Shown in pieces: positions 18,517 to 52,461 of a stretch of DNA of 64,000 nt. This DNA comes from Armatimonadota bacterium. Its GTDB lineage: Bacteria; Armatimonadota; UBA5829; DTJY01. The position numbers and the translations under genes are program-made. The notes under the pieces were generated by a model. That model did not search any database and was not told the DNA's origin. It saw nothing but the letters and a program-made list of their open reading frames with translations. The first letter of the stretch is position 1. Each line of letters begins with the position of its first letter. Location: the NCBI GenBank assembly GCA_025358205.1, contig JANYKG010000082.1, forward strand, positions 551-64,550, read 5' to 3'.

Positions 18517-18550
18517 ATTGGGCGAGTTCCTTAAGCGACTATGTCCATCC

Positions 18551-19108
18551 ATGTGTGTGGATTCGGTATCAGTGGTGGACGTGAAAGAACTGCAACGGCT
18601 TGGAATTCGCGCGGTGTTGATTGACCTGGACAACACACTGGTGCCATGGAAAGGGATCGTCCTTTCGCCTGAGGTCAAAGATTGGGTGAAGGATGTTCGG
18701 GCGAAGGGCCTGAAGCTGGGCATAGTATCTAACACGCAGAACATGAAGCGCCTGCACAGCATAGCAAGTGAACTGGATATCCCGTATGTCAGGAGAGGGC
18801 TGAAACCCAGGCGTGTAGGATTTCGCACTGCGCTGGAACTGCTGGGCGAGGACGCATCGCACGCGGCTGTGCTGGGCGACCAGATATTCACGGACGTATG
18901 GGGCGGCAACAGACTGGGCGCATTTACGATACTAGTTAGTCCACTTCACCCACGGGAATTCTTTGGCACAAAGATCAGCAGGTTCTTTGAGCACATGATA
19001 CTCAATGGGCTGAGGGCCAGGGGGATGCTTGGTGTAGACCCCGGCCATTCTCCCGCTAAAGCGGAACAAACGACCGCTTCCGACAGTCAAAAAGAATCGG
19101 AGCAGTGA
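18551..19108 (+). CDS. YqeG-family HAD-IIIA phosphatase
   Basis: Contains LIDLDNTLV (HAD motif I) and GDQIFTDVWGGN (motif III). The start is uncertain: the first ATG after the mltG stop was chosen and no clear RBS is visible. Confidence 0.6.
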   Translation: MCVDSVSVVDVKELQRLGIRAVLIDLDNTLVPWKGIVLSPEVKDWVKDVRAKGLKLGIVSNTQNMKRLHSIASELDIPYVRRGLKPRRVGFRTALELLGEDASHAAVLGDQIFTDVWGGNRLGAFTILVSPLHPREFFGTKISRFFEHMILNGLRARGMLGVDPGHSPAKAEQTTASDSQKESEQ

Positions 19109-19121
19109 CTTGGAGAGAGCC

Positions 19122-20013: not shown

Positions 20014-20069
20014 GCTCTGGTTGAGTGCCAGATAATTGGACAGCCGTGGTTCGGGAGGCCGTTAAGGAT

Positions 20070-21860
20070 ATGGGAACAGCAAGAAGAGATATAGGCGATC
20101 TGCTCATCGAGGCGCAAGTGATTACGCTGGAGCATCTTACCGAAGCGAAGGAAGTGCAGAAGAGCGCGCCTGGTGATTTGGGTCAGATTATACTGGACTT
20201 GGGGTTTGCGAACTCGAAACAGGTTATGCAGGCGCGCGCGCGTCTGATGAATATACAGTTTGTTGATCTTGCCACTCAGAAGCTGGACCCTGCGGCGTTG
20301 GCTGCGGTACCGGAGCATGTGGTGAGACGTCACTGTGTCATCCCGGTGTTTAAGAACGGCAACCGCCTGATGGTGGCCATGAGCGACACACAGAACATCA
20401 AGGCCATGGACGACCTTAGAGTCGTAACTCGTGGTATGCAGGTAGTTCCCGCCCTCGCTCTTCCTGACGCGATAATCGAAGCCATAGAGCGGCATTACAA
20501 GGGCGGCGACGGCGACGGCGCCTCTGCTGCCACTTCAGAAAGCGGTCTGCCTGTACCACCGAACGTAAACACACTGGAGAATTCGATTGGCGGCGGGCTG
20601 GCAGGCGTAAAGGATGCCATCGAGTCGTATAAATCGCGTGACATTGGCGATGAAGAAGACCCGGACGCGGTGGCGCAGATATCCGAGCAGGCTCCAATTA
20701 TCCGTGTGGCCAACACTATTATTCAGCAGGCGGTTCAGGTGGGCGCCAGTGATATCCACGTGGAACCGGACAGGCGGCACGTGCGAGTGAGATACCGCGT
20801 TGACGGTGTGTTGCACGAAGAAATGACCATCCCTAAGTATATTCAGGCGCCGCTAATCTCCAGGTTCAAGATCATGGCTGAGATGAACATCGCCGAACGG
20901 CGCGTACCACAGGACGGACGCATCCCGGTTCGCAAAGACGGCAAGGACTATGACCTTCGCGTGAGCTGCCTTCCTACGATCTGGGGCGAGAAGATTGTAT
21001 GCAGAATCCTGGACAAGAGCAGCGTACTTCTGGGTCTGAACAAGCTGGGTTTCAACAACGAAAACCTGGCCAAACTGGAAGAGATCATCACCCAGCCTAA
21101 CGGTATGTTCCTATGCACAGGCCCTACCGGTTCCGGCAAGACCACCACACAGTACGCCGTACTTCACAAGATTAACTCCGTAGATAGAAACATCATCACT
21201 GTTGAAGACCCGGTTGAGTATCAGCTTTCAGGTATCTCTCAGGTTCACGTGAACGTGAAAGCCGGATTGACGTTCGGCGGCGCACTTAGGTCGTTTCTGC
21301 GCCAGGACCCGGATATCATCATGGTCGGAGAAATGAGAGACTTGGAGACCGCCGAGATCGCGGTTGAAGCGTCTCTGACCGGTCACCTTGTTCTCTCAAC
21401 TCTGCATACCAACAACGCTCCTTCCGCCGTTATCCGAATGGTTGATATGGGAGTGGAGCCTTATCTTATATCCGCGACCGTTCACGGCGTACTGGCGCAG
21501 AGGCTGGCGCGAAAGATTTGCGCTCAATGCGGAGAGGACTACCAGACACATGCGAGCGATTTGAGGGTGCTGGGATACGAACCCAAGGACAAGGATGAGA
21601 TGGTCACCCTGCGCAGAGGGCGGGGCTGCGAGGTCTGCCGCCATACCGGGTTCAAGGGCAGAACCGGTATCCACGAGTTGATGACCATGAACGATGAAAT
21701 CGCGGAACTTACCGTCCGTCGCGCGCCGCTGGCAGACATCCGAGAGGCAGCGAAGGCGAACGGTATGCATGACCTGCGAGACGATGGCCTTGAGAAGGTC
21801 ATGAGCGGAGTCACCACGATCGAAGAGGTCAAGAAGGTTGTATTCACCGCCGGTCACTAG
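20070..21860 (+). CDS. pilB: type IV pilus assembly ATPase PilB (GspE family)
   Basis: N-terminal GSPII_E_N-like domain, Walker A CTGPTGSGKTTT, Asp/His boxes and a tetracysteine motif (CAQC...CEVC). The stop TAG 21858-21860 lies inside the CTAG terminus of repeat copy C. Confidence 0.9.
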   Translation: MGTARRDIGDLLIEAQVITLEHLTEAKEVQKSAPGDLGQIILDLGFANSKQVMQARARLMNIQFVDLATQKLDPAALAAVPEHVVRRHCVIPVFKNGNRLMVAMSDTQNIKAMDDLRVVTRGMQVVPALALPDAIIEAIERHYKGGDGDGASAATSESGLPVPPNVNTLENSIGGGLAGVKDAIESYKSRDIGDEEDPDAVAQISEQAPIIRVANTIIQQAVQVGASDIHVEPDRRHVRVRYRVDGVLHEEMTIPKYIQAPLISRFKIMAEMNIAERRVPQDGRIPVRKDGKDYDLRVSCLPTIWGEKIVCRILDKSSVLLGLNKLGFNNENLAKLEEIITQPNGMFLCTGPTGSGKTTTQYAVLHKINSVDRNIITVEDPVEYQLSGISQVHVNVKAGLTFGGALRSFLRQDPDIIMVGEMRDLETAEIAVEASLTGHLVLSTLHTNNAPSAVIRMVDMGVEPYLISATVHGVLAQRLARKICAQCGEDYQTHASDLRVLGYEPKDKDEMVTLRRGRGCEVCRHTGFKGRTGIHELMTMNDEIAELTVRRAPLADIREAAKANGMHDLRDDGLEKVMSGVTTIEEVKKVVFTAGH

Positions 21861-21936: not shown

Positions 21937-21984
21937 TTGCCGGTGCGGAGAAAAATGCCGCGGCACTGTACACGGAGGCATGAG

Positions 21985-23157
21985 TTGCAGGAAAGTAACA
22001 TAACGACACAGATGTCATCGAGGGCCAATGGCCGGGGTACATCTGTCGAAGATATTCACATAGATGATTTGCTCCGCCTGATCGTGGAGCGCGGCGCGTC
22101 CGACCTGCATCTGGCGGTGGGTTTGCCGCCGATCCTGCGCACGGACGGCCAACTGGTGCAGACCGCGTATGCATTCCTGACGCCTCAGGATACTCAGCGG
22201 CTGATGTACGACATTCTGACCGATGAGCAGGTGCAGCGGTTCGAGTCGGCATTCGAACTGGACTTTTCCTATTCCATTGAGAAGCTGTCAAGATTTCGCG
22301 TGAATATTTTCAAAGACAAAGGCACAGTTGCGGCCGCGTTCAGGGTCATCCCCCAGAGAATTCCGACAATCCGCGAACTTGGGCTTCCACTCGTCCTTGA
22401 GGATCTGACCCGAAAGCCCAGAGGACTCATTCTAGTCACCGGTCCTACCGGATCAGGAAAGTCTACCACCCTTGCCGCGATGCTGAATCTGATTAACACC
22501 GAGCGAAACGTTCATATCATCACCATCGAGGACCCGATTGAGTACCTGCACACCCACCGAAGCAGCGTTATCAATCAGCGCGAACTGGGATCAGACACTA
22601 AGTCGTTCTCGAATGCGCTCAGGTCATCGCTGCGCGAAGACCCGGATGTGATTCTCGTTGGTGAAATGCGCGACCTGGATACTATCTCCACCGCCATTAC
22701 GTGCGCTGAAACGGGTCACCTGGTGCTGGCTACGTTGCACACGAACAACGCGCCTCAGACGGTGGACCGTATGGTAGACGTTTTTCCGTCCGATCAGCAG
22801 GAGCAGATACGCTTCATGTTGTCCAACAACCTGGAAGCGGTGGTTTGTCAGCAACTGCTTCCGAGAGCGGGTATGCCGGGCCGAGTGTGCGCCATGGAGA
22901 TCATGATGGCGACACCGGCAATACGTAACCTGATTCGGGAAAGCAAGGCCCACCAGCTTACGTCTGTGATACAGACCAGCGCCAACGTGGGCATGCAGAC
23001 GATGGATCAATCGCTCAGGGATCTGTACCAGAAGGGTCTTATTTCCTACGACGAGGCGCTCACCCGGTGTATGAACCCGGATGAGTTCAAGACAATGGTA
23101 TCTACTACCACCACGCGCGGCGGACGACCGCAGGCAGCGCCGGGCGGCTCTCAGTAG
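21985..23157 (+). CDS. pilT: type IV pilus retraction ATPase PilT
   Basis: Walker A GPTGSGKSTT and PilT-type motifs are present. TTG 21985 is proposed as start because GGAGG lies 6 nt upstream. The alternative ATG at 22012 has no RBS. Confidence 0.85.
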   Translation: MQESNITTQMSSRANGRGTSVEDIHIDDLLRLIVERGASDLHLAVGLPPILRTDGQLVQTAYAFLTPQDTQRLMYDILTDEQVQRFESAFELDFSYSIEKLSRFRVNIFKDKGTVAAAFRVIPQRIPTIRELGLPLVLEDLTRKPRGLILVTGPTGSGKSTTLAAMLNLINTERNVHIITIEDPIEYLHTHRSSVINQRELGSDTKSFSNALRSSLREDPDVILVGEMRDLDTISTAITCAETGHLVLATLHTNNAPQTVDRMVDVFPSDQQEQIRFMLSNNLEAVVCQQLLPRAGMPGRVCAMEIMMATPAIRNLIRESKAHQLTSVIQTSANVGMQTMDQSLRDLYQKGLISYDEALTRCMNPDEFKTMVSTTTTRGGRPQAAPGGSQ

Positions 23158-23278: not shown

Positions 23279-24514
23279 ATGGCAACTTTTGCATATACAG
23301 TCAAAGACGCAGCGGGAACGATGAGGAAAGGCACCTCGGAAGGCGAGAACGAAGCCGTTGTGGTTCGTCGCCTGCAAGAGCAGGGGATGACGATCGTCAA
23401 CATCAAGCCGGGCAAAGCGGCCAAGGCCAAGTCCGGCGGCGGTGGGTTTGGCAGCGTCAAACTTGTTGACCTTTCCATTTTCTGTCGGCAGTTCTCTACC
23501 ATGGTTGACGCGGGTGTATCACTGGTGCGGTGTCTTACCGTTCTTAGCGAACAGTCAACCAGCCCCAAATTGCGACGAATCATCACCGAGATCGAGCAGG
23601 AAGTTCAGAGCGGACAGACGCTCTCGAAGGCGATGGCGAGGTATCCGGGCGTCTTCAACAGCCTGTTCATCGGTCTGGTCAAAGCAGGTGAGGTCGGCGG
23701 CGCGTTGGAGGAAAGCCTGCAGCGGTTGTCCGGATTCCTTGAGAAGGACCTGCAGCTCAGACGCAAAGTCAAAGGCGCCATGACGTATCCTACAATCGTT
23801 CTCGTAGTTGCGGTGACCATCGTCATAGGTCTGGTTACTTTCATAGTTCCGCAGTTTATGACCCTTTTCACCGACCTAGGCATGAAGCAAACGGACATGC
23901 CCAGCATGACTCGGTCGCTGATGCAATTCAGTAATTTCCTCACTACCAAGTGGTGGATATGCTTGCTCGTCGTCATTTCGTTTGTGGTTGGCATCAAGAT
24001 GTTTGGGAATACTAAAGTAGGACGCAGAGTTCTTGACCGCGTCAAACTAAAAGCGCCGGTCTTTGGTCCATTGAACCACAAAGTGTGCCTGGCCAGGTTC
24101 TCCCGGACCCTCGCCACATTGCTGTCGAGCGGTGTACCCATTCTTTCGGCCATGGAGACGGTGGCAGGCACGGTGGCCAATGAGATTCTTGGTGACGCGA
24201 TTTTGAACGCGCGGACCAGAATCCGTGAAGGTGACCGGATTGGTGAACCGCTGCAGAAGAGCAAGCTGTTCCCCCCGATGGTAGTGCAGATGATCAGCAT
24301 CGGCGAGGAATCCGGTTCGCTGGACAACATGCTTATGAAGGTGGCTGACTTCTACGAGGACGAGGTGGATGCGGCGCTGGAAAGCCTGACGTCCGCTATT
24401 GAACCTATCATGATCGTTGTTCTGGGTAGCGCTGTAGGATTCATCGTAATCGCTATGTTCAGCCCGCTTCTGGCGGTCATCTCTAACCTGAGTTCCGGCG
24501 GCGGAACCAACTAG
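23279..24514 (+). CDS. pilC: type IV pilus inner-membrane platform protein PilC (GspF family)
   Basis: Two T2SSF-like repeats with transmembrane segments. RBS AGGGAG. The stop TAG 24512-24514 lies inside the CTAG of copy E. Confidence 0.9.
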   Translation: MATFAYTVKDAAGTMRKGTSEGENEAVVVRRLQEQGMTIVNIKPGKAAKAKSGGGGFGSVKLVDLSIFCRQFSTMVDAGVSLVRCLTVLSEQSTSPKLRRIITEIEQEVQSGQTLSKAMARYPGVFNSLFIGLVKAGEVGGALEESLQRLSGFLEKDLQLRRKVKGAMTYPTIVLVVAVTIVIGLVTFIVPQFMTLFTDLGMKQTDMPSMTRSLMQFSNFLTTKWWICLLVVISFVVGIKMFGNTKVGRRVLDRVKLKAPVFGPLNHKVCLARFSRTLATLLSSGVPILSAMETVAGTVANEILGDAILNARTRIREGDRIGEPLQKSKLFPPMVVQMISIGEESGSLDNMLMKVADFYEDEVDAALESLTSAIEPIMIVVLGSAVGFIVIAMFSPLLAVISNLSSGGGTN

Positions 24515-24614: not shown

Positions 24615-25463
24615 ATGCCGGAATGGCTGGGCGTAGCAATAGCAGTGCTGTATGGAACGATAGTCGGCAGTTTTCTGAACGTCTGTATATGGCGTCTGCC
24701 ACGGGATGAATCGTTGACGCATCCGGGTTCGCATTGCCCGCAGTGCGGAAAACTACTCCGTGCGTGGGATTTGGTCCCGCTGTTCAGCTTTCTGCTGCAG
24801 GGGTGCAAGTGCCGATACTGCAAAGGGCCTATCACCTGGCGTTATTTTAGCGTGGAGTTGCTCACCGGAGTGTACTTCGGGTTAGCGTACATGTTTGCTC
24901 TGAATAATTCCAATGCCGTGGTTGTGGACTTCCTGCAGTATGCTTTGTTCGGCGCTGCGCTGATAGCGATCTTCTTCATTGATCTGGAGCACTGGATAAT
25001 CCCGGATCAACTCAGTGTTTTTGGAATAGTTCTAGGGATTGGGCGGGATGTCTACGGCTTGGTAAGCCATACCAGAGAAACGTTCCACATTCCGGTGCCG
25101 TGGACGAGCCTGAGTGTTCCGTTACCGCAGTCTTTGGCGGGAATTTTCGCCTGTGGTGGAACATTTCTTGCCATTGCCGTAGTCAGTTACTATATATTCA
25201 AGAAGGAAGGCATTGGCGGTGGTGACATCAAGCTGGCCGCTGCAGTGGGGGCGAATCTGGCGCTTGGCCCGGCGATGCTATCCTTCTTCATAGCGGTTGC
25301 GCTGGGAAGCTTCATAGGCATAGGGCTTATGATTTTCGGGAGGAAGTCTCGAAAGGATTATGTGCCTTTCGGTCCGATGATGGTAGCAGGCGCCTTTGTT
25401 TCGATGTTTTACGGACAAACACTCATAAAGATGTATTACAGACTCGTTGGACTGGACGGCTAG
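24615..25463 (+). CDS. pilD: prepilin peptidase / N-methyltransferase PilD (A24 family)
   Basis: N-terminal tetracysteine CPQC...CRYC and the DiS-P-DiS core with transmembrane helices. Confidence 0.9.
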   Translation: MPEWLGVAIAVLYGTIVGSFLNVCIWRLPRDESLTHPGSHCPQCGKLLRAWDLVPLFSFLLQGCKCRYCKGPITWRYFSVELLTGVYFGLAYMFALNNSNAVVVDFLQYALFGAALIAIFFIDLEHWIIPDQLSVFGIVLGIGRDVYGLVSHTRETFHIPVPWTSLSVPLPQSLAGIFACGGTFLAIAVVSYYIFKKEGIGGGDIKLAAAVGANLALGPAMLSFFIAVALGSFIGIGLMIFGRKSRKDYVPFGPMMVAGAFVSMFYGQTLIKMYYRLVGLDG

Positions 25464-25493
25464 ACCGTTCGGCTCATCCAGGAGGGACTCAAA

Positions 25494-26423
25494 ATGCTAT
25501 CTTACAAACAGAGAAGTGGAATGACTCTCATTGAGCTGCTGGTAGTTATCGCCATCATCGGCGTGCTGGCAAGCATGATCTTTCCTGTGGCGTCAGCCGC
25601 CAAGGCGCGGGCCAAGAAGGCCCAGTGCATGAACAACATGATGCAGATTTTCACCGCTCTTAAGCAGTTTCAGCTTGACGAGCACAAGTACCCCGAGTTT
25701 ATCGTCGGCCCGGTTCAGTGGAAGGACAGTAATGGGATGTACACATACATGGCCGGCGGAACCATCGTGACATTGAACCAGAATACAGGTATGGTTGGCG
25801 GTCCGAACGGCGGCAATGGCCGAGCGGTAGCTCTGTACCCGGAGTATATCAGCGAGTTGGGCAGCATCAAATGTCCGACGTCCGATTTGAATGAGGATTG
25901 GGTTTCGCCTCCAGTAGGCTCTTCTCTGGGAATGGGTCGTCCTTACACAACCGGTATGCGGCTAAATGCATCCGGCACGCTAGTTGAAGACAATGAGTCC
26001 ATTTCTCTTGACCCGATGTTTCCGATTTTGAGCGCTTTCAACAAGGGCCCTGTCCCGTTCAGAGGCAAGGGACCGGCGGGTGACGGTTCCAAAGCGTTTT
26101 CGGTGTACAAGTACAGCAGCTATGACTATCAGAGACCGCTGAAAACAGCCGCTACCGGTGAGATTCACTACAGTACGAGCTGGAGTGACTATGACCCGAC
26201 TAAGCCGATGTCTACTCAACCCGGGATTGAGCGTCAGCTCAGGTGGCGCACGCCGCCATCGGATACGGTGGTAACCTGGTGTGCGTATCATCGGAATATG
26301 TCCGGGAGTGGTGTGCCGACAGGCGCAAGCAAGGACACTGTTCTGTTCCTGGACGGGCATGTTGACCAGAAGCCAAGTCCTGCCTTTATTCCGTGGACGA
26401 CAGGATGGAATACGGTTCCTTGA
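25494..26423 (+). CDS. prepilin-type N-terminal methylation-domain protein of the DUF1559 (H-X9-DG) type; candidate major pilin
   Basis: Leader MLSYKQRSG followed by MTLIELLVVIAIIGVLA, with Glu at +5. The C-terminal motif VLFLDGHV is typical of DUF1559. RBS GGAGGG. A terminator-like hairpin follows. Confidence 0.8.
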   Translation: MLSYKQRSGMTLIELLVVIAIIGVLASMIFPVASAAKARAKKAQCMNNMMQIFTALKQFQLDEHKYPEFIVGPVQWKDSNGMYTYMAGGTIVTLNQNTGMVGGPNGGNGRAVALYPEYISELGSIKCPTSDLNEDWVSPPVGSSLGMGRPYTTGMRLNASGTLVEDNESISLDPMFPILSAFNKGPVPFRGKGPAGDGSKAFSVYKYSSYDYQRPLKTAATGEIHYSTSWSDYDPTKPMSTQPGIERQLRWRTPPSDTVVTWCAYHRNMSGSGVPTGASKDTVLFLDGHVDQKPSPAFIPWTTGWNTVP

Positions 26424-26446
26424 TAGCCGATGTTTAGTCGGAAATC

Positions 26447-26492
26447 GGGATAACCGCGTGCAAGCAGGCAGGCGGTTATCTTGCATTTCGTG
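26447..26492 (+). terminator. terminator-like hairpin after the DUF1559 pilin gene
   Basis: Stem GGGATAACCGC (26447-26457) / GCGGTTATC (26472-26480) with a 14-nt loop, followed by TTGCATTTCG. The U-tract is weak, so it may only be partial. Confidence 0.4.
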
Positions 26493-26663
26493 GGTACAGC
26501 AAGGAACAATTGGCGTCGGCATGAAGTCGAACCTAGTGTGGGGGGCTGCAGACCCCGATGATGGGCTGCAAGCCGTGGCGAATCGGTGTTGATGCCAAAG
26601 GACACAGTGCGTCTAATGAACCAGACCATACAATCATCAAGAATGAAGCGGGTGATAAAGCAT

Positions 26664-28505
26664 ATGCCAGTGATCCGAAGCCTGCGCGATAGAACCGGCA
26701 CGTCACTGATTGAGGTGCTGATAACGCTGGTGGTATTTCTCACCGGTATGGTATACGTTGTCCGCATGTTCCCAGGCGGTTTTGTCAGCCTGAGGCATGA
26801 TGAGAACGTGACAGCGGCTAACCGTCTTGCCCAATCTGAGCTTGAGCGGCTGCAGGGCAGGGCGATCAACCTGCCAACAGGAATCCTGCCTTGGGGTTGG
26901 GACGGCACGGCGTATAATGTGCTTCCGTTGACCGACCCGGAGAACATGGACGACCAGGACACCAAAGGTCTGAGCATGCCGGCGAACTTCGACATGTACT
27001 ATAACACCGACGTGAACAAGTTCCGCCGCGTGCTGGGTGAGTACACGCGCATTCCATCCCCGATCACCACGAACGGTAATGTTGGCTCCATATACGTATT
27101 GCAGTACAGCCCGGTGATGGCTACCGATGTCACCTTCGCGAGTAACGACAATCCCGTACTGGTTGCGGGTGGCGCGCTAAGGCGGAGATGGGTCGCCTCC
27201 GGTCAGGCAGTGGCTTCCAGACTCAGGAGTTTTGGTGACTATGCCATTGATTATGATGAAGCAAAGATTTATCTGCGGCCCTCCACTTCCGCGAATCCCA
27301 GAAGATTCCTGATTAACTATTCCTACTGGGCGGGTAGCGGAACCAGTATGACTCTGACGCCGGTGATAGGAGTCCCTATCATTGTTGGTCCGGCAATCAC
27401 GTCAGATGTCAGCCGCGGATATGTGAAGATTGATATCCCTGCTCCTACAGGAGGTCTGATCAAGGCGGCAACCGGGTTTGACAGCATAGACCGTGCGAGT
27501 GATGTGCTCTCCAGACAGTTCGAGCAGTTGGCTGTTGGCACGGCATGGAGCACTGACGATCCGTATGAGTTTAAGATGATTGATCCGTACCGCGGAGTGG
27601 TGGCATTCAATCCTAGCGGATATTCGTATCAGGAATACACCGCGCGCGGCAGGCAGCCTCTGGTCGCGAACATCACCTATACAGTTCTGGACTGGCATAT
27701 TATCCGCGAAGAGCGCAAGTTGCCGTCCGTGTTGAACAGCGCGGCAGACCAGGACGTGAAGCTCACACTTCGCTACATCAAGGAGAGCGGTGAGACTGAG
27801 GAGTACGGTGGCGGAATGTACCAGGGACTGGCTCCTAACTACGGCTTGCCGTTTGACGTGATAGCGGTTGATGTGGAAACCGGGCTTTGGTACACGAATG
27901 CTGCTGGGTCAGTTGTTCCAGGCACAACACGCCCGGCGATGATGGTGGATTACAAGGGTGGAGTGATTAGATTCGACCCGGGATTTGTGGCGATTCACGC
28001 CAATGATTCAACGAAAGTCAGTCCGTTTGCCGGGAAGTCGTTCCGCATATTCTACCGTGCGGAAGGTGATTGGGCTGTGCAGACCTACAAAGCCTATGAG
28101 AGCTACCAGCGCAGCTACAACAATGGCATTAGCGGCTTGGATCAGCGGCAGTATTTCATGAATGGCAGTCTTCTCTACGTGGCTCAGTGCAACGCGGGCG
28201 GCACGGTGACCGTTGATTTTGCTTATACAGTCGGCAACAACCCACAGGAGTTATTCGCATCCGGCCAGGTTTATCAGATAAACGACGGCAGTGATAGCAG
28301 TATCCCTCCGTTCTGCGCGGACTTGACCTCAAGCTTGAGAAGCACCTACGGAGCTGGAGCCTTGATAAACGTCACCAGGGTCACGAAGGTCAATGGAGTA
28401 TCGCTTGGTGTAAGAGTGATATGGAGGGAATCCGGACGAGGATTCAGCGCCGGACGCTGGCGGAAGATCAAGCTTGAGACTTATCTTACACGATCAGATA
28501 GCTAG
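26664..28505 (+). CDS. PilV-like giant minor pilin (~613 aa)
   Basis: Class-III leader MPVIRSLRDRTG followed by TSLIEVLITLVVFLTGM, with Glu at +5. ATG 26664 has a GGGTGA RBS. The C-terminal ~550 aa are uncharacterised. Alternative upstream in-frame starts exist at 26586-26643. Confidence 0.7.
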   Translation: MPVIRSLRDRTGTSLIEVLITLVVFLTGMVYVVRMFPGGFVSLRHDENVTAANRLAQSELERLQGRAINLPTGILPWGWDGTAYNVLPLTDPENMDDQDTKGLSMPANFDMYYNTDVNKFRRVLGEYTRIPSPITTNGNVGSIYVLQYSPVMATDVTFASNDNPVLVAGGALRRRWVASGQAVASRLRSFGDYAIDYDEAKIYLRPSTSANPRRFLINYSYWAGSGTSMTLTPVIGVPIIVGPAITSDVSRGYVKIDIPAPTGGLIKAATGFDSIDRASDVLSRQFEQLAVGTAWSTDDPYEFKMIDPYRGVVAFNPSGYSYQEYTARGRQPLVANITYTVLDWHIIREERKLPSVLNSAADQDVKLTLRYIKESGETEEYGGGMYQGLAPNYGLPFDVIAVDVETGLWYTNAAGSVVPGTTRPAMMVDYKGGVIRFDPGFVAIHANDSTKVSPFAGKSFRIFYRAEGDWAVQTYKAYESYQRSYNNGISGLDQRQYFMNGSLLYVAQCNAGGTVTVDFAYTVGNNPQELFASGQVYQINDGSDSSIPPFCADLTSSLRSTYGAGALINVTRVTKVNGVSLGVRVIWRESGRGFSAGRWRKIKLETYLTRSDS

Positions 28506-28558
28506 GCCGCATGACTCACGAAGGGCGTGAATCATGCGCTTCGTGCATAGTGCATGCG
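28502..28558 (+). repeat. degenerate double-hairpin repeat, copy F
   Basis: Sequence CTAGGCCGCATGACTCACGAAGGGCGTGAATCATGCGCTTCGTGCATAGTGCATGCG. Hairpin 1 is retained with one mismatch and hairpin 2 is eroded. The CTAG contains the stop codon of the PilV-like gene. Confidence 0.5.
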
Positions 28559-28578
28559 AACAGGGAAGTGATGCAGGT

Positions 28579-30408
28579 ATGCCCAAGTTGAGATTAGATA
28601 ATAAAGGGTTCACCCTGATAGAAATACTGGTGGTGCTGGCGCTGACCATGCTGGTCATGGGCCTGATCTTTTCGCCGCTCGTGAGCAGCCTGAAGGTTAC
28701 GCGCAGCGCGGAGATCATCATCAGGACGCAGGACAATGCCAGATTGGCGCTGGCTCAGATAACCTCTGATCTGAGCAATGCCATGTATGTGTATGATGAC
28801 ACCGAGAACTACATGAACTTCCCGGTGAAGGATGCAACCGGGGCTTCGGCGGTGGCGCGGGTATACAACTCCAAGGTTGACATGATCCTGCCGAGAGTAC
28901 GCCAAGTTTGCCCGAAGGATGCATCACACACGCCAGAGAAACCGGCGAACGAACTGGAAGAAGTAGGTCCTGTGTGCCAGGTTTGCGGTGAAAGGCTGGA
29001 GTCGAAACCTATTCAGCCGCTGACACAGGATACCAAGATTGTGCGGTATTTCATCGGGCTGAAGGACCCCACGCAACCGTATACGAATGGTTATACGGAT
29101 CAGTTGGCGGAGGCGGGAGCGCCGGATAATTCTCATATCCTGTATCGGGTGGAGTTCGATCCGATGGACCCCACGCTCTTCCCGGCGCTTGACCCGGTCA
29201 CCGGTAATCCCAGAACCGCGGACGACAACAGGCAAGACGAGAACTTTTTTTACAATACTTCGATTGCCCCCGATGGCAGGTCGTTTGCCGATAACTGGAA
29301 GAAGATAGTCCGCCCGGTGGTACAGTTGGAAGGCGTGGACCTGATTACGCTGGACTTTGATGATGCCGGCAAACCGGTTGTGACCCCATTGGCGAAGTTC
29401 GCTCCCACCGCCATCTACAACGATCCGCTGGTTCCCACATCTTCAAACGAGGATAACCCTGAGCGCGGAGATGCTCCTCCTGCCACGTACAAGGCGTCTT
29501 ACGGCTACTGGGTGATGCCGTACAAGGTGACACTGGAGCCGGAGGGTGGCAACGGGGAAATTTATGAGACCAACAGAGGGATGGGACTGAGCGGTGTGGC
29601 TGATCCGAGCAACAACATGTGCATATACAAGATGGACCCCACAGCAGCGCCCATGCTTGTCTTCAACATCACGCACTACGAAACCACAAAAGCTATATCG
29701 GCTTACGGCATGGGTGATATCAACGTTCCGATCACAGACCGTCAGCGCATCTTTACAGTGGACACCATGAAGGGCACCGTGAACTTTGCGTTCCCGAACA
29801 TTGACCCAACAAAATCCGCCGCGTTTAATGCCAGGCTTGCCGGCGGTGCAACGCAAAACCGTTCGCTGAGTGACCTTGCCAGTACGGACAAGATATCCCT
29901 GGACCCGGCTACGAAGTTTTTGCTGAACTGCCCGCACATTGGAACGGGGGCATACGATCCACGGATTCTCAACAATGGAACGGTGGTTCCAGGCTCGGTG
30001 AAGGTGATTGCGCCTGATGCTCTGCAGTCTGCTTCCGTACCGCCGTTGGTAACGTACACCAAGGTGCCGTATCTCCTGAGCGAACCGGCGGCCAATCAGT
30101 ATAACGTGGATATGTCATACAACATGGATGAGAGCAACGCTGTAATGCCCGGTGTCGCGGCTTTGTATTTCAACCGACTCAGGGGCGTGGGTTCCGGTGC
30201 GCAGCCCTCACTTCCCAGTGGCACAGACAATGTTCTTATTTACTATAAGGTTCAGAACAACAAAAAGGGCGACGTGCTGCGGGCGAATTACATCACCAAG
30301 AGCGTGATGACTGTGACTGTGGGCATACATATCTACGATACCGGAGCGAAAAAGCCCCAGTCAGTGCAGTTCACGAGCCGCGTCCGCCTAAAGAACATCG
30401 CGTTGTGA
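28579..30408 (+). CDS. PilW-like giant minor pilin (609 aa)
   Basis: Leader MPKLRLDNKG followed by FTLIEILVVLALTM, with Glu at +5. The downstream QDNARLALAQITSDLSNAMYVYD resembles the PilW conserved region. An internal CQVCGERLE Cys pair is present. Confidence 0.72.
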   Translation: MPKLRLDNKGFTLIEILVVLALTMLVMGLIFSPLVSSLKVTRSAEIIIRTQDNARLALAQITSDLSNAMYVYDDTENYMNFPVKDATGASAVARVYNSKVDMILPRVRQVCPKDASHTPEKPANELEEVGPVCQVCGERLESKPIQPLTQDTKIVRYFIGLKDPTQPYTNGYTDQLAEAGAPDNSHILYRVEFDPMDPTLFPALDPVTGNPRTADDNRQDENFFYNTSIAPDGRSFADNWKKIVRPVVQLEGVDLITLDFDDAGKPVVTPLAKFAPTAIYNDPLVPTSSNEDNPERGDAPPATYKASYGYWVMPYKVTLEPEGGNGEIYETNRGMGLSGVADPSNNMCIYKMDPTAAPMLVFNITHYETTKAISAYGMGDINVPITDRQRIFTVDTMKGTVNFAFPNIDPTKSAAFNARLAGGATQNRSLSDLASTDKISLDPATKFLLNCPHIGTGAYDPRILNNGTVVPGSVKVIAPDALQSASVPPLVTYTKVPYLLSEPAANQYNVDMSYNMDESNAVMPGVAALYFNRLRGVGSGAQPSLPSGTDNVLIYYKVQNNKKGDVLRANYITKSVMTVTVGIHIYDTGAKKPQSVQFTSRVRLKNIAL

Positions 30409-30466: not shown

Positions 30467-33373
30467 ATGGATAGAAAAAGCCGAACTTCATTCTTCACCA
30501 ATATGGTAGTATCTCGGCGTGGGCAGACACTTGTGCTTGCGCTGATTATCCTGTTCATGCTGGTATTCCTGGGCGGGCTGTTCGTGACACTTATTGCGCG
30601 GAATCTGGCCCGAACCAGGCGCAGCGGCCAGACGTTGACCGCGGAATACCTTGCAGAGACAGGTGTGCGGTATGCCAGCGATCAGCTTACGTACAGTCTG
30701 GACGGCGCGGACTGGCGTCCGGTGCCGAACTACCCGGATGTGATAAGAAATCTGAATGGCGACAACATAACCACTCCGGTAAAGCCGAACCTATCTGACC
30801 CGGACTACGATTGGCTGACGAAGGGATATTGCCGATTCACGTATGGGGACGGTAGATTTCTCATCAGAGTAACTTATGAACCCAAGTTCGGTGATCCTAT
30901 CTCCAAGTACATCAAAATCGAATCCATAGGCCGTGTGGGCGTCGTGGACGAAAACGACCCTACAACGCTGGACCTGAAGCAGCCGCTACGCCTGAGAGCG
31001 GAACGTGTGGCGTACAAGGCTATCGGCATTACGGATTACTCCAGGTTCATCACAAATCAGGACAGGCGCACGGAGGCATTTGGCTTGGGCGTTCCGGCTT
31101 ACACTCAGCCCAACGGCTTGAAGCAAGCGTTCACCACTCAGTATGGTGACGTGAGTGACTATAACGGTGACACCATACCGGAGCCGCACGGTGGGTCAAT
31201 CCGCGTGAACGGCAACCTGACTTGGTACGGCAAGAACTTCATCTGGCTGGACGCTAAGCATAACGAGGCTGTGGAAGTGGCAGGGGATATCAGTCACGCT
31301 GTGGAGTGGTCCGGCGGCGGCAATGGCCCCACGCCGGAATCCACGATGGTGTACCTGAATCCTGACCGCACTATCTCAGGCTGGCGGACGAATCTTCTCT
31401 TGCGGCAGAGTTCTGATCCGTATTTTGATACCAGCACGGATAACCCAAGTGCGTCTGTGGGCGTGTATCGAGACGGTCGGCCCGAAGGTGATGTCGGCGT
31501 TACGATTGCCGGAGTTTTGCATCGCAGACCGCGCGGCATACAAAGGCTTGATCCGCCGCTGCTCGATGTTACCGGTCCGACAGGCGGCACGGGCAGATAC
31601 CGCGAACTCACTCGCAACTCCGGCGAATGGCTGCCCCCCGCATCTACTGGAGGCACGTGGTACAACACCGGTTTCTACGGATGGGGTAAAGGCCTGTACA
31701 TCAACAACCGAGACGACCTCCAGACCGAGTCTGATCTGAAGACGCTGAGGGATGATTGGATGAACCCCGGCGAATCGCAGAACTGGGTTGGACCGTACTA
31801 CAACCCGCCTGGAATAATCATGGTGCTTACGCCATATGATCTTGACAACGATGATGGCGATAATAACCCGATGACAGGCAAGCCGGACATCATTCTGATG
31901 GAGTCGAACACGTCAGGGGCGAAGTTCAACTGGTATGACAAGAACGGTGGCATCATTACACCCGGCGCCGGGCAGATGGTGATGCCCTATCCCGAGAACG
32001 GCATCATTTTTGCGGAAGGCAATATTCGCATCAAGGGTATGCTCGCGCCGCACAAACAGCTCACCGTGGTTTCGGCGGGTACTATCTATGTGGAAGGGAA
32101 TGTTCTGAAGTGCGGGCTTAAAGACGATGGCACTCCAATGCTGCCGACCGATCCTAAGGACAGCAGCATTGCGCTTCTGGCCACCGACTACGTTGCCGTG
32201 AATGCCACTCAGTTCTTCGGACCCGCGCCGGAGAGCCAGACTCCTGGTAGCTGGCGTCCTGAAATGGGCGGGTTTGATGCGTCGGTGGACCATCCGTTGA
32301 GTTTCGACTTCGCGTTCGGCATGGACCCGTCCGCATGGTATGGAACTATGCCCGTATGCGCGTATGTGCGTCATGCGGCGGACGGCGGCTCTGCTTACAT
32401 GAATATGACGGTCAACCAATTTGGCGCAGGGGCTGATCCGGGCGATCCCACTGATCAATGGTATGGCTTCTACAAGTTCGACATGCAGCCGTGGAGTACC
32501 CTTATTCCGCCTGCTCAGCCCGCGCGGCAGTACATCTACCCCATGGCGGATATTGATGCGGCGGCGACGGTGTTTCCGGTTCCGCCAAATAGCCCGACGG
32601 ATCAATCCAACCTTGTGGCGGTGCAAACTTACCCAATATGGGAGCATCAGGTCTTCACGATATTCCCGCTGAGTAACCCGCCCAGGCCGGATCAGAACTA
32701 TGCGCTGAATATCTTCCCCGGTTCCAGCAATCAGATCGGCTTCCGGCTGGATCAGAACATAGCGAAAGCGGATTACCTGCTTTCAAGGTTCGCAGTGCAG
32801 CCTTGTGACATTCGCGTGGAGGCGATGCTGTACGCTCAGAACGGGTCTTTCTACGTGATATCGGGTGCGCCGTTCAACCCTGATCCAGGCGACAGCAGAA
32901 ATGAGTTCCTGAAGGGGAACGCTGCCGTTTCGGGGAGGCTGGCACGCATGGGCATTGATGAGCGGTGGCCTTTCTATGGTGAGCCGCTGGATGTGCGTTT
33001 GATTATCAACGGTTCGGTGAGCGAGAACGTCAGCGCGCCGATAGCGGATCAAGCAGCATGGATGTCGGCGTGGGGGTGGATTCCGCCCTCACACGGATCG
33101 AGTCCACTGCCGGCGGATGAGGTCATCGGGTACCGGTCGCCTCTCGATCCTGAGAACTCGGAGACTGTTGCGGGCACTAGTGCGTTGCCTGTTCGTCAGC
33201 GTGGGCTATCCATCATCTACGATGATATGCTTTCGTACCCGAAGGTGCCTACTGTTGCCACAGATAGAACCAAGGACGTGCAGATCAGGCGTGATCTTTA
33301 TCTGCGGCCGTTAGCCGTTACGCCAAAGCTGCCGGTGAGCAGTCAGACAATATTCTTTGGCCGTCCCACTTGA
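30467..33373 (+). CDS. PilX N-terminal-domain protein, 968 aa
   Basis: The N-terminus RRGQTLVLALIILFMLVFLGGLFVTLIARNLARTRRSGQTLTAEYLAETGVRYASDQL matches the PilX_N pattern. RBS GGGGAGAAGG. The large C-terminal region has no clear homology that I can assign. Confidence 0.7.
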   Translation: MDRKSRTSFFTNMVVSRRGQTLVLALIILFMLVFLGGLFVTLIARNLARTRRSGQTLTAEYLAETGVRYASDQLTYSLDGADWRPVPNYPDVIRNLNGDNITTPVKPNLSDPDYDWLTKGYCRFTYGDGRFLIRVTYEPKFGDPISKYIKIESIGRVGVVDENDPTTLDLKQPLRLRAERVAYKAIGITDYSRFITNQDRRTEAFGLGVPAYTQPNGLKQAFTTQYGDVSDYNGDTIPEPHGGSIRVNGNLTWYGKNFIWLDAKHNEAVEVAGDISHAVEWSGGGNGPTPESTMVYLNPDRTISGWRTNLLLRQSSDPYFDTSTDNPSASVGVYRDGRPEGDVGVTIAGVLHRRPRGIQRLDPPLLDVTGPTGGTGRYRELTRNSGEWLPPASTGGTWYNTGFYGWGKGLYINNRDDLQTESDLKTLRDDWMNPGESQNWVGPYYNPPGIIMVLTPYDLDNDDGDNNPMTGKPDIILMESNTSGAKFNWYDKNGGIITPGAGQMVMPYPENGIIFAEGNIRIKGMLAPHKQLTVVSAGTIYVEGNVLKCGLKDDGTPMLPTDPKDSSIALLATDYVAVNATQFFGPAPESQTPGSWRPEMGGFDASVDHPLSFDFAFGMDPSAWYGTMPVCAYVRHAADGGSAYMNMTVNQFGAGADPGDPTDQWYGFYKFDMQPWSTLIPPAQPARQYIYPMADIDAAATVFPVPPNSPTDQSNLVAVQTYPIWEHQVFTIFPLSNPPRPDQNYALNIFPGSSNQIGFRLDQNIAKADYLLSRFAVQPCDIRVEAMLYAQNGSFYVISGAPFNPDPGDSRNEFLKGNAAVSGRLARMGIDERWPFYGEPLDVRLIINGSVSENVSAPIADQAAWMSAWGWIPPSHGSSPLPADEVIGYRSPLDPENSETVAGTSALPVRQRGLSIIYDDMLSYPKVPTVATDRTKDVQIRRDLYLRPLAVTPKLPVSSQTIFFGRPT

Positions 33374-33417: not shown

Positions 33418-33547
33418 TGGAAGTGGAACACAGCGGGCCTCAAAGTCGTTTAACTAAGTGTGACCTTGACCTGCATTGTTCATGGAGAACGTGAATCACG
33501 CAGGTTATAGAGGAAACGCGTCCGACGCGTATTGGATGGTGAGTGAA

Positions 33548-36500
33548 ATGGCAAGACGATTCGTCAGATACACATTCGCAATAATGCTCTGTGCGGTGTT
33601 GACCACCGGGGCGCTATACGCTGCCAGCTTTACCTACTCAGACCAGGCGAAGCGGATCAAGGCCGGGGTGGTGTTGCCTTCCCTGCCTCCTCCTCCCCCT
33701 CTAGATCCTCGCATGGATCCGGCCAACCGCCCGAACCCATACGTGTTTTATATTATGGATCAGCGTCAGGACATGAAGCCTGCGGGCTGGGAGTTCTACA
33801 ATCCATACGCGTCTTCGCATGTTACCACAGACATGGCGGCCAGATGGGGCGGCATGTGCGCGGTAGGCGACGTTATTGATAAGTCCATGGGGTGTTACTG
33901 GGAGGTTCCGATCGGTGAGGTGAACCCAGACGATCTGGCGCAGTACGATGTGCTTTTTCTCAGCGGATACGGCAACATGACGTTCAACGGCCGCGAGAAG
34001 GAGAAGCTGCGGAAGTTTGTGGATAACGGCGGTGTGCTGTGGGTTGACTATCAGCAGAAGCCAGGGTATCCGGGTCTTCAGACGACGCTTGACCCGACGT
34101 TTTTCGTGCCTTCGATAGCGTTTTCAAATGGCGGCGTGGGTATGAGCGTGCGCGCGGATATCCCGAAAGCGGCAAGTGCGCATGCGCTCTTGAACAGACC
34201 TTTCCTCGTTTCAGGCATGGATGCGAATCTTCTGGGGGGTGGCGGCGGTGCGGCGCCTGGCAATGAATTCTTGAGTCTGGTTGGTGAGGCGCTGCAGACA
34301 TTCATGCCGATAGTGGCGCGCGGCGGCAACCAAGTGGTTTCGGCGGCGCAGTACGGCAGCGGGTACATTGTTGTTACCGCGGACGGCGTGGCGCAGGCGA
34401 TCACCAATCCGGTTGGCGTGGCCGGCGCGGTGTGCGGCAAGTTCTTCATTGCGGCGCAACCGGAGGATCTGAAGCTTTCGTACAACATCGTGAACTGGGG
34501 ATCGGAGTCCCCGGCTCCACGGAAGAACCCCAGACAAACGGGGGGTTCTTTTGAGGAGATAGGTATGCCCCTGGTGCCGCTGTGGAGTTATACCGCGACG
34601 ACGCCCGGCATGAGTGTGAACAGCTCACCGGTTATTCTCGATGACATGATATTCTATGTGGACGGCAACAATGTGCTGCATGCATTCGACTTGTCGCCGA
34701 TACGCGACCGTGACGGAGATGGGAATCCCGATGACGGCCTCCCTGACTACTCGACCGGATCGCCGTGTGACGAACTATGGCGGGTAAGCATTGGTGAGCC
34801 TTGCTCTTCTCCTACTGCGGCCTATGTTCCCATCGGCGGAGGGGTAGTCGGCGCGGTTCCTACCGTGTTCATTGTGACCCAATCAGGCAAAGTGACTGCC
34901 TACAACGCGCTGGATTACACCACAAGTACGGGGCCTACGCCAGTGCAGCTCTTTACTGATTCCAGCCAGGCGCTAAATCCGTTTGTCTTCCCGCCTACTG
35001 CACTTGATACGCGAATACCTGCTGCCACCTATGCTGAGGGTTCGCTCTATGTGGGCGACGGACGTGGGGTTATACACGTTCACAACTTCTTATCTACAGG
35101 CGCAGTCCCGGAATGGAGACACGTGGCCATAGCAAACAATCCGGCTGATGGCATGATTTCGAACTCGCCTACCGTCGGCTATTTTTATGACGCAACCAGC
35201 GGCGCTACCGAGTTGGTTGCCTATCTGAACGGGCGCGGGACGCCTACTCTGGGGGCGAATCCTTATACCGCAGCATATCCTTTAAGTTCGTTCAATGAGA
35301 CACTTGTCCCGGATAATCCAGCAGCTACCCCAGGTCTGTATCGCATACGTTCTGTAAATGCCTATATCGCCACGACTCCGATTGCTCCATTTGATCCGAG
35401 ATTGTACTATACCGACCCCACAACCGGCGCCTTGAATCCAATTCCTACTACCGACTATACACTGCAGAACCCAGGGAAGTTTCAGATTATCAATCCTTCC
35501 GCAACTCTGACGACCATCACCGCATTGGGCGCGTCCGTGGTTGCAGACTATTGGCTTGACTACACGAACCCAGCGGCAACAACGTCGTGGCGATCCATCC
35601 AGATCTGGGGTAACGATAACCCTCTTGACAAGTTGGGCATTACAGGCTCGGCTGCTGCAGGCAAGAACAACACTCTGTATTACGGCACCGAGAACGGCTC
35701 CATTTATGCCGTCAGGGAGACTGGTCGGGCCGGAGCGACCATTGGTGGGGGACCGCTGAGAACTCCTCTTGTGGTGAAGTGGCGCTGGTGCTTCCAGGAC
35801 CCAACTGTCAAAGCGGTAATCGGGACCAATAATGTTGAGATTGTCGGATCACCGGTAGTGGTGAACGATATGGTGTATTTCGGTGTGAATATTGGCAACC
35901 AGGGATTCCTTTTTGCGTTCCAGGCCGATCCGGCGTTTACCATCAGGCTCAATCAGCCGATAGCGCCTAATACGCAGGTGATTCTGAAGCAGATGGACTC
36001 CTTGAGACCGACGACGCCAGTTGCCGGTGTGCCAAGGAATTACGTGGCAGCATCTGACACGGACGTTGACAAGGCGGCGGGTGATACGGTTGCTCTGGTG
36101 GACTATGATACCAGCAAGATATCCGTCATCAACTTCAAAGGTGTTGGCGGCGAGTTGACGTCTTCGGCTGACCTCGTTGTGGAGTATGTCCCGGCGGCCG
36201 CGGTGGTACCCGGTCAGACGCCTATTCCGATTCAGGAACCTCATTACGCGTTCCTGCCGAACTCCGGCGACAATTGGAACAACCTGAAATGGTTCATGAG
36301 ACTGGAGGATATCTCGGTCAATCCGGTAATGAACTACAAGATAGCGTCATCCCCTACGGTGATGGGAGACGTTCTGTACATCGGTTGCCAGGACGGCACC
36401 ATGATCGCGGTGGACGTGGGCAAGGCGAACCAGGCCGCTCCCAAGCAGATGTTGGGCAATGTGCAGGAGAAGTATTTCAAGAATATCCTGACAATCACCG

Positions 36501-37858: not shown

Positions 37859-37996
37859 CAGGGAGTTTGTAGTCGCCCCTTTTATGGGTGCGCAGTTACC
37901 GCGCAGGCATGAAGCTTGCGGCTACAAGCAAGGATCAGGGATAGCTTTGACCGATCCTCGTTCAGTTGTTGGACGAGGTGGGAGGTGCAGTACATT

Positions 37997-46485: not shown

Positions 46486-46493
46486 GCGTCATC

Positions 46494-47156
46494 GTGCTTA
46501 AGATCAACTTAATTCCTGCATATATCTATGAGAGACGGAAACTCAAGCAAACGACAACCGCGATGATTGTATTGGTTGTGTGTGTGGCTGGCGGTATGTT
46601 TGCGTGGCTTATGATGCTGAATAATCATAAGCAGGAGCTGACGGAGCAGGTCACCCTCATGGAGCAGAAGATGGCCGAGGTCAAGGCCATTGAGGCTCAG
46701 GCCATAGCGGAAGAGGCCAAGGCTCCGATCATGCAGGGGAAGGTAACGTTCTTCGATGCGCTGGCAGCGTATAACGTGGAGTACCCGAAGCTGTATGCCG
46801 AGCTTGCCAAGTATACGTACAGCCGTGTTCTGTACCGGTCCGTGGAGCCAAGCGGCACTCAGCTCAAGATAGGCGCCACCGCGCGAAGCGTGGGCGATTG
46901 CGGACGATACCTGCTCAACATGTATCGCGCAACTCATATTTTCAACTCCGTGACGATAGACGCGGTTCCGGGATGGGGCGGCGCCATAACGCAGGGGTTT
47001 GACTTTAGCGTAACGTGTAATCTTGTGAAGCCCATCAATGCGCCAACATATGGTGCAGCCGCTGGTGCAGCGGGAACACCGCCAGGCGGGCCTCCGGCGG
47101 GACCTGCCGCGCCTCAGATGGGACCGCCGCCTACTGGTGGGCCGCCTCCCGGATAG
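46494..47156 (+). CDS. pilN: type IV pilus assembly protein PilN
   Basis: GTG start 8 nt after the pilM stop. The PilN signature INLIP is present, with one transmembrane helix, and the tail is Pro/Gly-rich. Confidence 0.75.
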   Translation: MLKINLIPAYIYERRKLKQTTTAMIVLVVCVAGGMFAWLMMLNNHKQELTEQVTLMEQKMAEVKAIEAQAIAEEAKAPIMQGKVTFFDALAAYNVEYPKLYAELAKYTYSRVLYRSVEPSGTQLKIGATARSVGDCGRYLLNMYRATHIFNSVTIDAVPGWGGAITQGFDFSVTCNLVKPINAPTYGAAAGAAGTPPGGPPAGPAAPQMGPPPTGGPPPG

Positions 47157-47180
47157 TAACAGTGGAACTCTACTGCCGGC

Positions 47181-47864: not shown

Positions 47865-47888
47865 TAGCGGGCATAGAAAGATTTTCTG

Positions 47889-48653: not shown

Positions 48654-48775
48654 TGAGCGCACAACGATCCGGGTCGGCAAAGAATAATCGTGACGGGTAA
48701 GAACATTTGGCCGACAGAAGTCGTCTTAGTATCGATAGTCTACAGATTTCACGATGGCGGAAGGAGAATTTTGCC

Positions 48776-49423: not shown

Positions 49424-49522
49424 TGATGTATATGGGCTGATCGGCCGACGCAGACCGCGAGTTCGGGCCTGAGCGACCGTTCGGGTTATGGATTTGAGTT
49501 GAAGTACCGGGGAGGAAATCGT

Positions 49523-52440: not shown

Positions 52441-52461
52441 TACCGATAGATACTGTTGGAG

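Follow-up and report, generated by a model that had tools for sequence, protein, structure and literature searches.

We analysed a 64,000-nucleotide (nt) stretch of an Armatimonadota genome (contig JANYKG010000082.1, forward-strand positions 551 to 64,550), which we call the window and whose first letter is position 1 in all coordinates below. The window contains a type IV pilus locus, and our subject is the gene that follows the prepilin peptidase gene pilD in this locus. It encodes a type IV prepilin of 309 amino acids (aa) that is a candidate for the main subunit of the fibre that the locus would build. The gene and the signals around it are as follows.

19063..19091, plus strand: promoter-like motif of the extracytoplasmic function (ECF) sigma type, GGAAC-N18-GTCAAA, just 5' of aroE-pilB-pilT-pilC-pilD-pilin
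25480..25486, plus strand: Shine-Dalgarno sequence AGGAGGG, 7 nt 5' of the prepilin ATG
25494..26423, plus strand: prepilin gene, an open reading frame (ORF) of 309 aa; alpha1 helix (residues 12-63) and a DUF1559-like head of ~245 aa
25494..25520, plus strand: class III leader MLSYKQRSG, with cleavage predicted after Gly9
26440..26489, plus strand: conserved terminator-type hairpin in its extended form; core stem 26447-26457 / 26472-26482
26503..26531, plus strand: ECF-sigma-type promoter-like motif GGAACAAT-N14-AAGTCGAA, 5' of the giant pilin operon

The protein has the attributes of a type IV prepilin, namely a class III signal, scores above cutoff on both PF07963 (N_methyl; 32.7 bits, cutoff 21.2) and TIGR02532 (29.9 bits, cutoff 16.3), and a cognate peptidase and assembly genes in the same locus. 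Its N-terminus reads MLSYKQRSG/MTLIELLVVIAIIGVLASMIFPV (the slash marks the predicted cleavage site here and below), with a short, basic, Gly-ended leader. The predicted mature protein begins MTLIELLVVIAIIGVLASMIFP and carries Glu5, Gly14 and Pro22, all three of which are invariant in the family alignment. At residue +1 (window position 25521) the prepilin has Met, most orthologs have Tyr (GYTLME), and the more distant ones have Phe; Tyr at this position is unusual among type IVa pilins. The start codon lies 30 nt after the pilD stop codon, and its Shine-Dalgarno sequence is the strongest among the pil genes, with AGGGGGAAT at the equivalent position in orthologs. An initial annotation, made from the letters of the window, had described a 309-aa protein with a class III signal (G/MTLIE, Glu at +5) as the first prepilin after pilD, with a strong ribosome-binding site (GGAGGG) and two segments quoted as DUF1559 hallmarks. 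We found the same on each count: the ORF and both models support the prepilin, pilD (24615-25463) lies directly upstream, the ribosome-binding site is the AGGAGGG listed above, and the two segments, QCMNNMMQIFTALKQF and VLFLDGHV, are both present in the translation. The N_methyl part of the Pfam check that it had proposed likewise came out positive.

The gene is embedded in a full set of type IVa pilus-like genes (pilB, pilT, pilC, pilD, pilM, N/O-like genes and a secretin), all on the same strand.

20025..21860, plus strand: pilB-like extension ATPase (T2SSE 454 bits, MshEN 68 bits)
21937..23157, plus strand: pilT-like retraction ATPase (T2SSE 170 bits; 406 aa, without the N-terminal domain)
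23279..24514, plus strand: pilC platform protein (T2SSF 232 bits, two repeats)
24615..25463, plus strand: pilD prepilin peptidase and N-methyltransferase (A24_N_bact 112 bits, Peptidase_A24 50.6 bits)
26586..28505, plus strand: 639-aa pilin-like protein (RTG/TSLIEVL, with Glu5), kept in all orthologous loci
28534..30408, plus strand: 624-aa prepilin (KG/FTLIEIL, with Glu5; N_methyl 28.3 bits)
30467..33373, plus strand: 968-aa protein (N-terminus RRG/QTLVLALIIL, no Glu5, in the style of GspK/PilX)
33476..44794, plus strand: two giants (1460 and 2292 aa) that contain beta-propeller segments of the PQQ_2 type and are candidates for PilY1-like tip proteins
45016..51169, plus strand: pilM, three small bitopic pilN/O/P-like proteins, an STN-domain protein and the pilQ secretin

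The PilM_2 match reaches 181 bits, and for the secretin the PilQ model outscores that of GspD. All six frames of the window were searched for prepilins, both by a regular expression that describes the class III signal and by a hidden Markov model (HMM) made from 118 N-termini of relatives. These searches found only three prepilin signals, the other two being those of the 639- and 624-aa proteins, so that no small PilA-like pilin is encoded within it. The absence of a small PilA, which had been claimed for the locus, thus extends across the 64 kb. Among the prepilins linked to the machinery in the window, the 309-aa protein alone has the size of a pilin, and its slot is conserved in orthologous loci. 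The N-terminus of the 968-aa protein, RRG/QTLVLALIILFMLVFLGG, resembles a prepilin signal without Glu5, which we take to be the hallmark of tip pilins of the GspK/PilX type; the assignment of this protein to that type rests on this feature. The two giants are possible analogues of PilY1.

Close relatives of the prepilin (42-63% identity) form ~40 clusters among 5.8 billion proteins, and all of those with a named source come from Armatimonadota. Gene order is identical in all eight orthologous loci (pilB-pilT-pilC-pilD-[prepilin]-~620 aa-~610-aa prepilin-~900-975 aa-~1350-1475 aa), with alaS-ruvX-mltG-HAD-aroE standing 5' of pilB. When genome contigs were scanned with a profile of the family, matches to the generic pattern of the N-terminal helix predominated, and only three Armatimonadota loci proved useful. 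In L007, a relative with 34% identity is found in the order pilC-pilD-[309 aa]-[612-aa prepilin] and scores 21.6 bits on the DUF1559 model PF07596. The positional counterpart in L008 (28% identical) reaches 34.8 bits on this model, above its threshold, and is followed by a 606-aa prepilin, and L022, from a Chthonomonas metagenome-assembled genome (MAG), has a matching pair of 299 and 619 aa. Identity between orthologs is 42-58% for the prepilin, on a par with its pilin-like neighbours, and 65-92% for PilB, PilT, PilC and PilD; such faster divergence is the pattern expected of an exposed subunit. Outside this phylum, an Akkermansia muciniphila MAG (L013, 3001-4174) contains a prepilin-like ORF of ~390 aa with 55% identity to residues 5-74 of the prepilin.

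The relationship of the protein to DUF1559 is more distant than its two hallmark segments had implied to the initial annotation, which named it a DUF1559 (H-X9-DG) prepilin. PF07596 gives 15.0 bits (E 0.027) over residues 35-68 only, below the gathering threshold of 23.3, and no precomputed PF07596 match exists among ~35 orthologs. TIGR04294, the H-X9-DG model (cutoff 19 bits), gives no match to the prepilin even at E<=1, whereas two canonical DUF1559 proteins, the positive controls P0039 and P0041, reach 21.8 and 27.4 bits. The H-X9-DG label must be dropped, since His266 is separated from Asp287-Gly288 by 20 residues (H-X20-DG) rather than 9. An insertion of ~11 residues in that hairpin turn of the prepilin family produces the longer spacing, and in P0036, the most distant family member, the spacing is 10.

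Nonetheless, more sensitive comparisons connect the two families. When a profile of 27 family members was aligned by hhalign with a profile of 25 Pfam-positive DUF1559 proteins, residues 6-148 matched with a probability of 99.9% (E 3.6e-34), well beyond the helix and across the common YPEY...L-CP motif, and the C-terminal LFLDGHV strand gave a separate alignment to DUF1559 at 91%. In a joint alignment of 118 sequences, Glu14, Pro31, Cys45 and Cys127 are invariant and Asp287 and Gly288 nearly so. An exhaustive phmmer search with the head domain only (residues 60-309) against 1.84 billion representatives returned 160 proteins at E<=0.001, with the final ~100 residues accounting for most of these matches; among the 97 of these relatives that were checked, 92 carry N_methyl and 50 match PF07596 at E<=0.01. 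On our reading of these sequence relationships, the prepilin belongs to a divergent, peripheral clade of the DUF1559 superfamily that lies outside the curated family definitions. The lack of a match to the DUF1559 models is an outcome that had been named beforehand as speaking against the assignment, and the label holds only in the sense of remote homology.

The predicted structure depends on the same relationship. AlphaFold2 gave an unusable model from the family-only alignment of 27 sequences (predicted local distance difference test score, pLDDT, 52), and adding DUF1559 relatives raised the pLDDT to 89.5, with a predicted template modelling score (pTM) of 0.86. The confident model consists of a 52-residue helix (residues 12-63) and a compact, mostly beta head. 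This predicted lollipop architecture fits a pilin, in which an alpha1 helix of similar length (~53 residues) is joined to a globular head. Foldseek searches with the confident model returned no PDB chain at E<1, no solute-binding protein and no match in BFVD. Profile searches of PDB sequences gave matches limited to the alpha1 helix of major pilins and pseudopilins (GspG 5wda, E 1e-12; Geobacter PilA-N; Thermus PilA4; Myxococcus PilA; Neisseria PilE). With no PDB similarity outside alpha1, the head is without a solved relative. Conserved positions in the prepilin family include Cys45, Cys127, Cys263 and His266...Asp287-Gly288-His289; Cys263, His266 and Gly288 are at least 90% conserved in a subfamily of 98 sequences, and Cys45 and Cys127 are invariant in all DUF1559 relatives. 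A Cys45-Cys127 disulfide probably links alpha1-C to the head, and the arrangement Trp262-Cys263-x2-His266...Asp287-Gly288-His289 may form a metal site in place of the canonical H-X9-DG turn.

Downstream of the prepilin gene lies a stem-loop that had been noted at 26447-26480 and proposed as a partial terminator. The stem-loop is real, with a core at 26447-26482 and an extended form at 26440-26489. The intergenic fold has a z of -3.3, the hairpin occurs at the same place in all nine loci compared, and 4 of its 14 predicted pairs show compensatory (two-sided) changes among the six closest loci. In orthologs the hairpin is followed by GTTTTCGTGT, a U-tract that identifies it as an intrinsic terminator; in the window it is followed by UUGCAUUUCGUG, where the U-tract is weak and degraded to TTGCATTTCGTG. 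A simple scan for sigma-70 promoters and terminators found nothing relevant near the prepilin gene, having missed the hairpin because its loop exceeds 8 nt, and an Rfam search of the intergenic region (26380-26640) found no known RNA family.

About 20 nt past the hairpin lies the motif GGAACAWT-N14-AGTCnAA, in which GGAACA.T and AGTC are invariant and the spacing is fixed in nine of nine loci. GGAAC followed by GTC is the pattern of ECF-sigma promoters. The second such motif, before aroE, keeps its position in each of the seven loci that extend over the region, and in L005 it falls outside the upstream ORF, which indicates that its conservation is not driven by coding constraint. Only ~0.06 chance matches to the GGAAC/GTC motif are expected in the window. 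In orthologous loci, the pair (GGAAC-N18-GTC[A/G]A) is found at 10996 and 3552 (L001), 10960 and 3839 (L003), 10892 and 3848 (L005), 10983 and 3567 (L088), 11053 and 3799 (L090), and 11122 and 3764 (L091), with a single position given for L087 (5407) and L089 (5421). We also considered two other readings of such motifs. A sigma-54 promoter at the GGAAC motif was rejected on its GG-to-GC spacing, which is 9-10 nt and not 12. A promoter inside pilD (GGAACATT-N-AGTC at 25158, also in L088) was rejected as a coding coincidence because it lies in frame (GTFLAIAVV) and its DNA is not conserved in the other seven loci.

Because the hairpin is followed by a conserved promoter-like motif, the giant pilin-like genes appear to form a separate transcription unit. 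The proposal of a terminator is therefore sustained, whereas its partial character is weakened: readthrough need not be invoked for downstream genes that carry an invariant promoter-like motif of their own. The locus likely comprises two units, aroE-pilBTCD-pilin and a tip-protein operon, that share one promoter type, and aroE appears to share the pilus promoter. This arrangement suggests that the whole pilus system could be an ECF-sigma regulon; no sigma factor gene is present within the 64-kb window.

We propose that the prepilin is the major subunit of the type IV pilus encoded by this locus, a reading to which we assign a probability of roughly 0.5 on sequence evidence. This reading is favoured by its unique size among the prepilins linked to a complete machine of the retractile type, by its invariant position, by its Shine-Dalgarno sequence and by the 3' hairpin, which would both stabilise and terminate the transcript. 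In addition, its alpha1 helix is most similar to those of major pilins and pseudopilins (GspG, Geobacter PilA-N, Thermus PilA4 and Myxococcus PilA). Moreover, the Glu5-less member of the downstream trio and the beta-propeller giants fit a tip complex, which would leave the prepilin as the shaft subunit. In such a model, PilD, encoded immediately upstream, would remove the 9-residue leader and methylate the new N-terminus, and the hydrophobic alpha1-N helix with Glu5, Gly14 and Pro22 would keep it anchored in the inner membrane as a subunit ready for assembly. Polymerisation through the envelope complex of PilM/N/O and the secretin would then be carried out by PilB and PilC, and PilT would retract the fibre. 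A priming or tip complex would consist of the giant pilin-like trio downstream together with the beta-propeller pair, and the genes of all five would be transcribed separately, from the putative ECF-sigma-type promoter 3' of the pilin terminator. As the sole pilin-sized subunit of the locus, the prepilin would most likely be the main building block of the fibre. We infer its processing and polymerisation, its status as the major subunit and the tip role of its neighbours from the arrangement of the locus and from known pili. The protein is best explained as a type IV pilin with an unusually large and divergent head of the DUF1559 type that is fixed in a conserved locus.

Several points weigh against a role as the major subunit. 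No separate promoter was seen for the prepilin gene: the gap to pilD is 30 nt, and the candidate within pilD is not conserved as DNA. Codon adaptation, calculated against rplJ, rpoB, rpoC and rpsG, is 0.608, within the lowest quarter of window genes, with an effective number of codons (Nc) of 55.8; as a proxy for expression this measure is weak or uninformative here, because rplJ itself reaches only 0.649, Nc is ~50 throughout and the genome shows little translational selection. The lean of the PDB matches toward major pilins is partly an artefact, since minor-pilin structures usually lack alpha1-N. To our knowledge, a head of ~32 kDa and a mature size of ~300 aa are beyond those of any characterised type IVa major pilin. 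The evidence for a sole pilin covers 64 kb of the genome. Finally, Armatimonadota carry dozens of prepilins that resemble PulG or DUF1559 proteins (79 PulG-like genes in Fimbriimonas; PMC4072686), any of which could be the abundant subunit.

Some of these points would suit a different role, in which the protein is a low-abundance minor or adaptor pilin, similar to GspH or FimU, that connects the giant tip complex with a major pilin whose gene lies elsewhere in the genome. We regard this as a possibility to be taken seriously but not as the probable answer. It is consistent with co-transcription of the gene with low-copy machinery genes from no promoter of its own, with its low codon bias, with its position directly adjoining minor-pilin-like genes, and with the many other prepilins in Armatimonadota genomes (PMC4072686); several model organisms, moreover, encode their major pilin away from the minor-pilin cluster. 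However, the terminator and the separate promoter-like motif divide the prepilin gene from the minor-pilin-like operon in all nine loci. In addition, its alpha1 helix is nearer to GspG and PilA (45 bits over 60 residues) than to GspH (26.6 bits over residues 8-42 only), and its Shine-Dalgarno sequence is the strongest of the locus.

The similarity to GspG raises a further alternative, that the prepilin builds, as its major subunit, a short pseudopilus across the periplasm and that the locus encodes a type II secretion-like exporter or a machine for cell-surface display rather than long fibres. GspG is the best match both among curated models and in the PDB (5wda), public annotations of the orthologs read 'type II secretion system protein', and a G-like gene followed by larger pilin-like genes that end in a Glu5-less, K-like member mirrors the established order gspG-H-I-J-K. 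We consider this unlikely, given the PilT-type retraction ATPase, the PilM_2 match and a secretin that favours PilQ over GspD. In addition, the GspG and T2SSG scores are below cutoff and limited to alpha1, and GspL, GspM and GspC have no match that reaches cutoff. Less probable still is a non-polymerising protein whose prepilin signal only anchors a periplasmic or surface binding domain in the inner membrane (compare SBP_bac_10), as might be supposed from the early description of DUF1559 as a putative solute-binding family (PMC2754498) and from the 91 N_methyl+SBP_bac_10 proteins of Tuwongella, which fractionate with membranes (PMC8567305), since the confident model resembles no solute-binding protein or other PDB fold at E<1, Glu5, Gly14 and Pro22, typical of polymerising pilins, are invariant, and the gene is strictly linked to pilus machinery in every locus.

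If the prepilin is indeed the major subunit, our results have implications beyond this locus. In several environmental phyla, few uncharacterised families of paralogs are as large as DUF1559/SBP_bac_10; Planctopirus, for example, has 68 DUF1559 paralogs, two of them essential (PMC10632474). The literature that we searched on DUF1559/SBP_bac_10 and on Armatimonadota pili assigns no function to the family, draws no link to a pilus shaft and names no Armatimonadota major pilin. A single-copy, divergent member in the pilin slot of a conserved pilus locus is a concrete and testable entry point to a large orphan family, and the finding itself rests on position and analogy. Polymerisation of the prepilin would assign a function to the DUF1559 family, widen the known range of sizes and folds of type IV pilins, and provide, for a phylum in which genetics is almost absent, a regulatory signature of pilus genes of the ECF type. 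With ~300 mature residues, a main subunit of this kind would exceed in size all type IVa major pilins so far described. Should the prepilin not polymerise, the major pilin would have to come from elsewhere, and the protein would be an unusual accessory subunit. A bolder and more doubtful proposal combines several claims: that the protein is the true fibre subunit of Armatimonadota type IV pili, larger than any known type IVa major pilin and with a head unlike any solved fold; that the DUF1559 paralogs of Planctomycetota, Verrucomicrobiota and Armatimonadota are interchangeable or co-polymerising subunits that diversify the fibre surface; and that one ECF sigma factor turns on the entire system through the two GGAAC-N18-GTC promoters.

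Other observations concern the neighbouring genes. The 639-, 624- and 968-aa 'minor pilins' are 4-6 times the usual size and have no Pfam domain other than N_methyl. The 1460- and 2292-aa giants also carry DUF4159 and Golvesin_C segments and are placed after the pilin-like genes in all loci. Two STN-domain proteins occur in succession (48707-49423 and 49499-51169): the first, of 238 aa, matches only the N-terminal part of PilQ/HofQ, and the second, the 556-aa secretin, has a weak STN match of its own. This pair could reflect a secretin N-domain that has been split or duplicated, or else an accessory partner that resembles a pilotin. The protein after pilM has a weak match to the Amuc_1101 family and the secretin a weak match to the Amuc_1098 family, which hints at a relationship between this locus and the Amuc_1098-1102 pilus-like cluster of Akkermansia. 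The pilus locus occupies 31 kb between housekeeping genes, alaS-ruvX-mltG-HAD-aroE (14303-19964) on one side and rplJ-rpoB-rpoC-rpsG (51436-62269) on the other; the upstream synteny is kept in every ortholog contig, and an Rfam L10_leader is found at 51276-51439 (47.7 bits).

The locus can be compared with four known systems. The Verru_Chthon cassette proteins B, C and D (TIGR02596-02599) offer a similar layout, with one moderate and several very large prepilin-like proteins beside a giant protein, and three of the pilin-like proteins have weak N-terminal matches to proteins D, B and C, respectively. Membership in this cassette is unsupported, as the scores (18.5 versus 70, 14.4 versus 51.4 and 17.8 versus 256.5 bits) come from the N-terminal helix only; the first of these is the match of the prepilin to TIGR02596 (protein D), which covers residues 11-41.

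GspG/PulG, the major pseudopilin of type II secretion (TIGR01710, PF08334; 5wda), shares with the prepilin an alpha1 helix over ~60 residues together with Glu5, Gly14 and Pro22, and in both cases larger pilin-like genes come after it and end in one without Glu5. In contrast, the prepilin reaches only 45 bits on TIGR01710 (cutoff 88.85), over residues 9-68, and 13.5 bits on PF08334 (cutoff 21). Its head of ~245 aa has no detectable similarity to the ~80-aa head of GspG, and its machinery, unlike that of type II secretion, includes PilT and PilM. Type IVa major pilins such as Myxococcus xanthus PilA (208 aa, 8tj2) and Thermus PilA4 (6xxd) resemble the prepilin in their short, Gly-ended leader and alpha1 helix of ~53 residues, and type IVa major pilin genes share with it the linkage to pilBTCD and a terminator after the gene. 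The prepilin differs from them in having no similarity past alpha1 and in lacking the C-terminal D-region disulfide, its conserved cysteines being 45, 127 and 263.

DUF1559/SBP_bac_10 proteins of Planctomycetota, Verrucomicrobiota and Armatimonadota have the same prepilin N-terminus, a C-x-NN-x2-Q motif past alpha1-N, the YPEY...L-CP motif with an invariant cysteine pair (Cys45 and Cys127 in the prepilin), and the C-terminal (V/L)LFLDG(H/S)V strand. However, the middle of the prepilin head cannot be aligned with theirs, and the prepilin has an additional conserved cysteine, Cys263, within a TWCxxH motif. Finally, whereas DUF1559 proteins occur as dozens of dispersed paralogs, the prepilin is single-copy and tied to its pilus locus.

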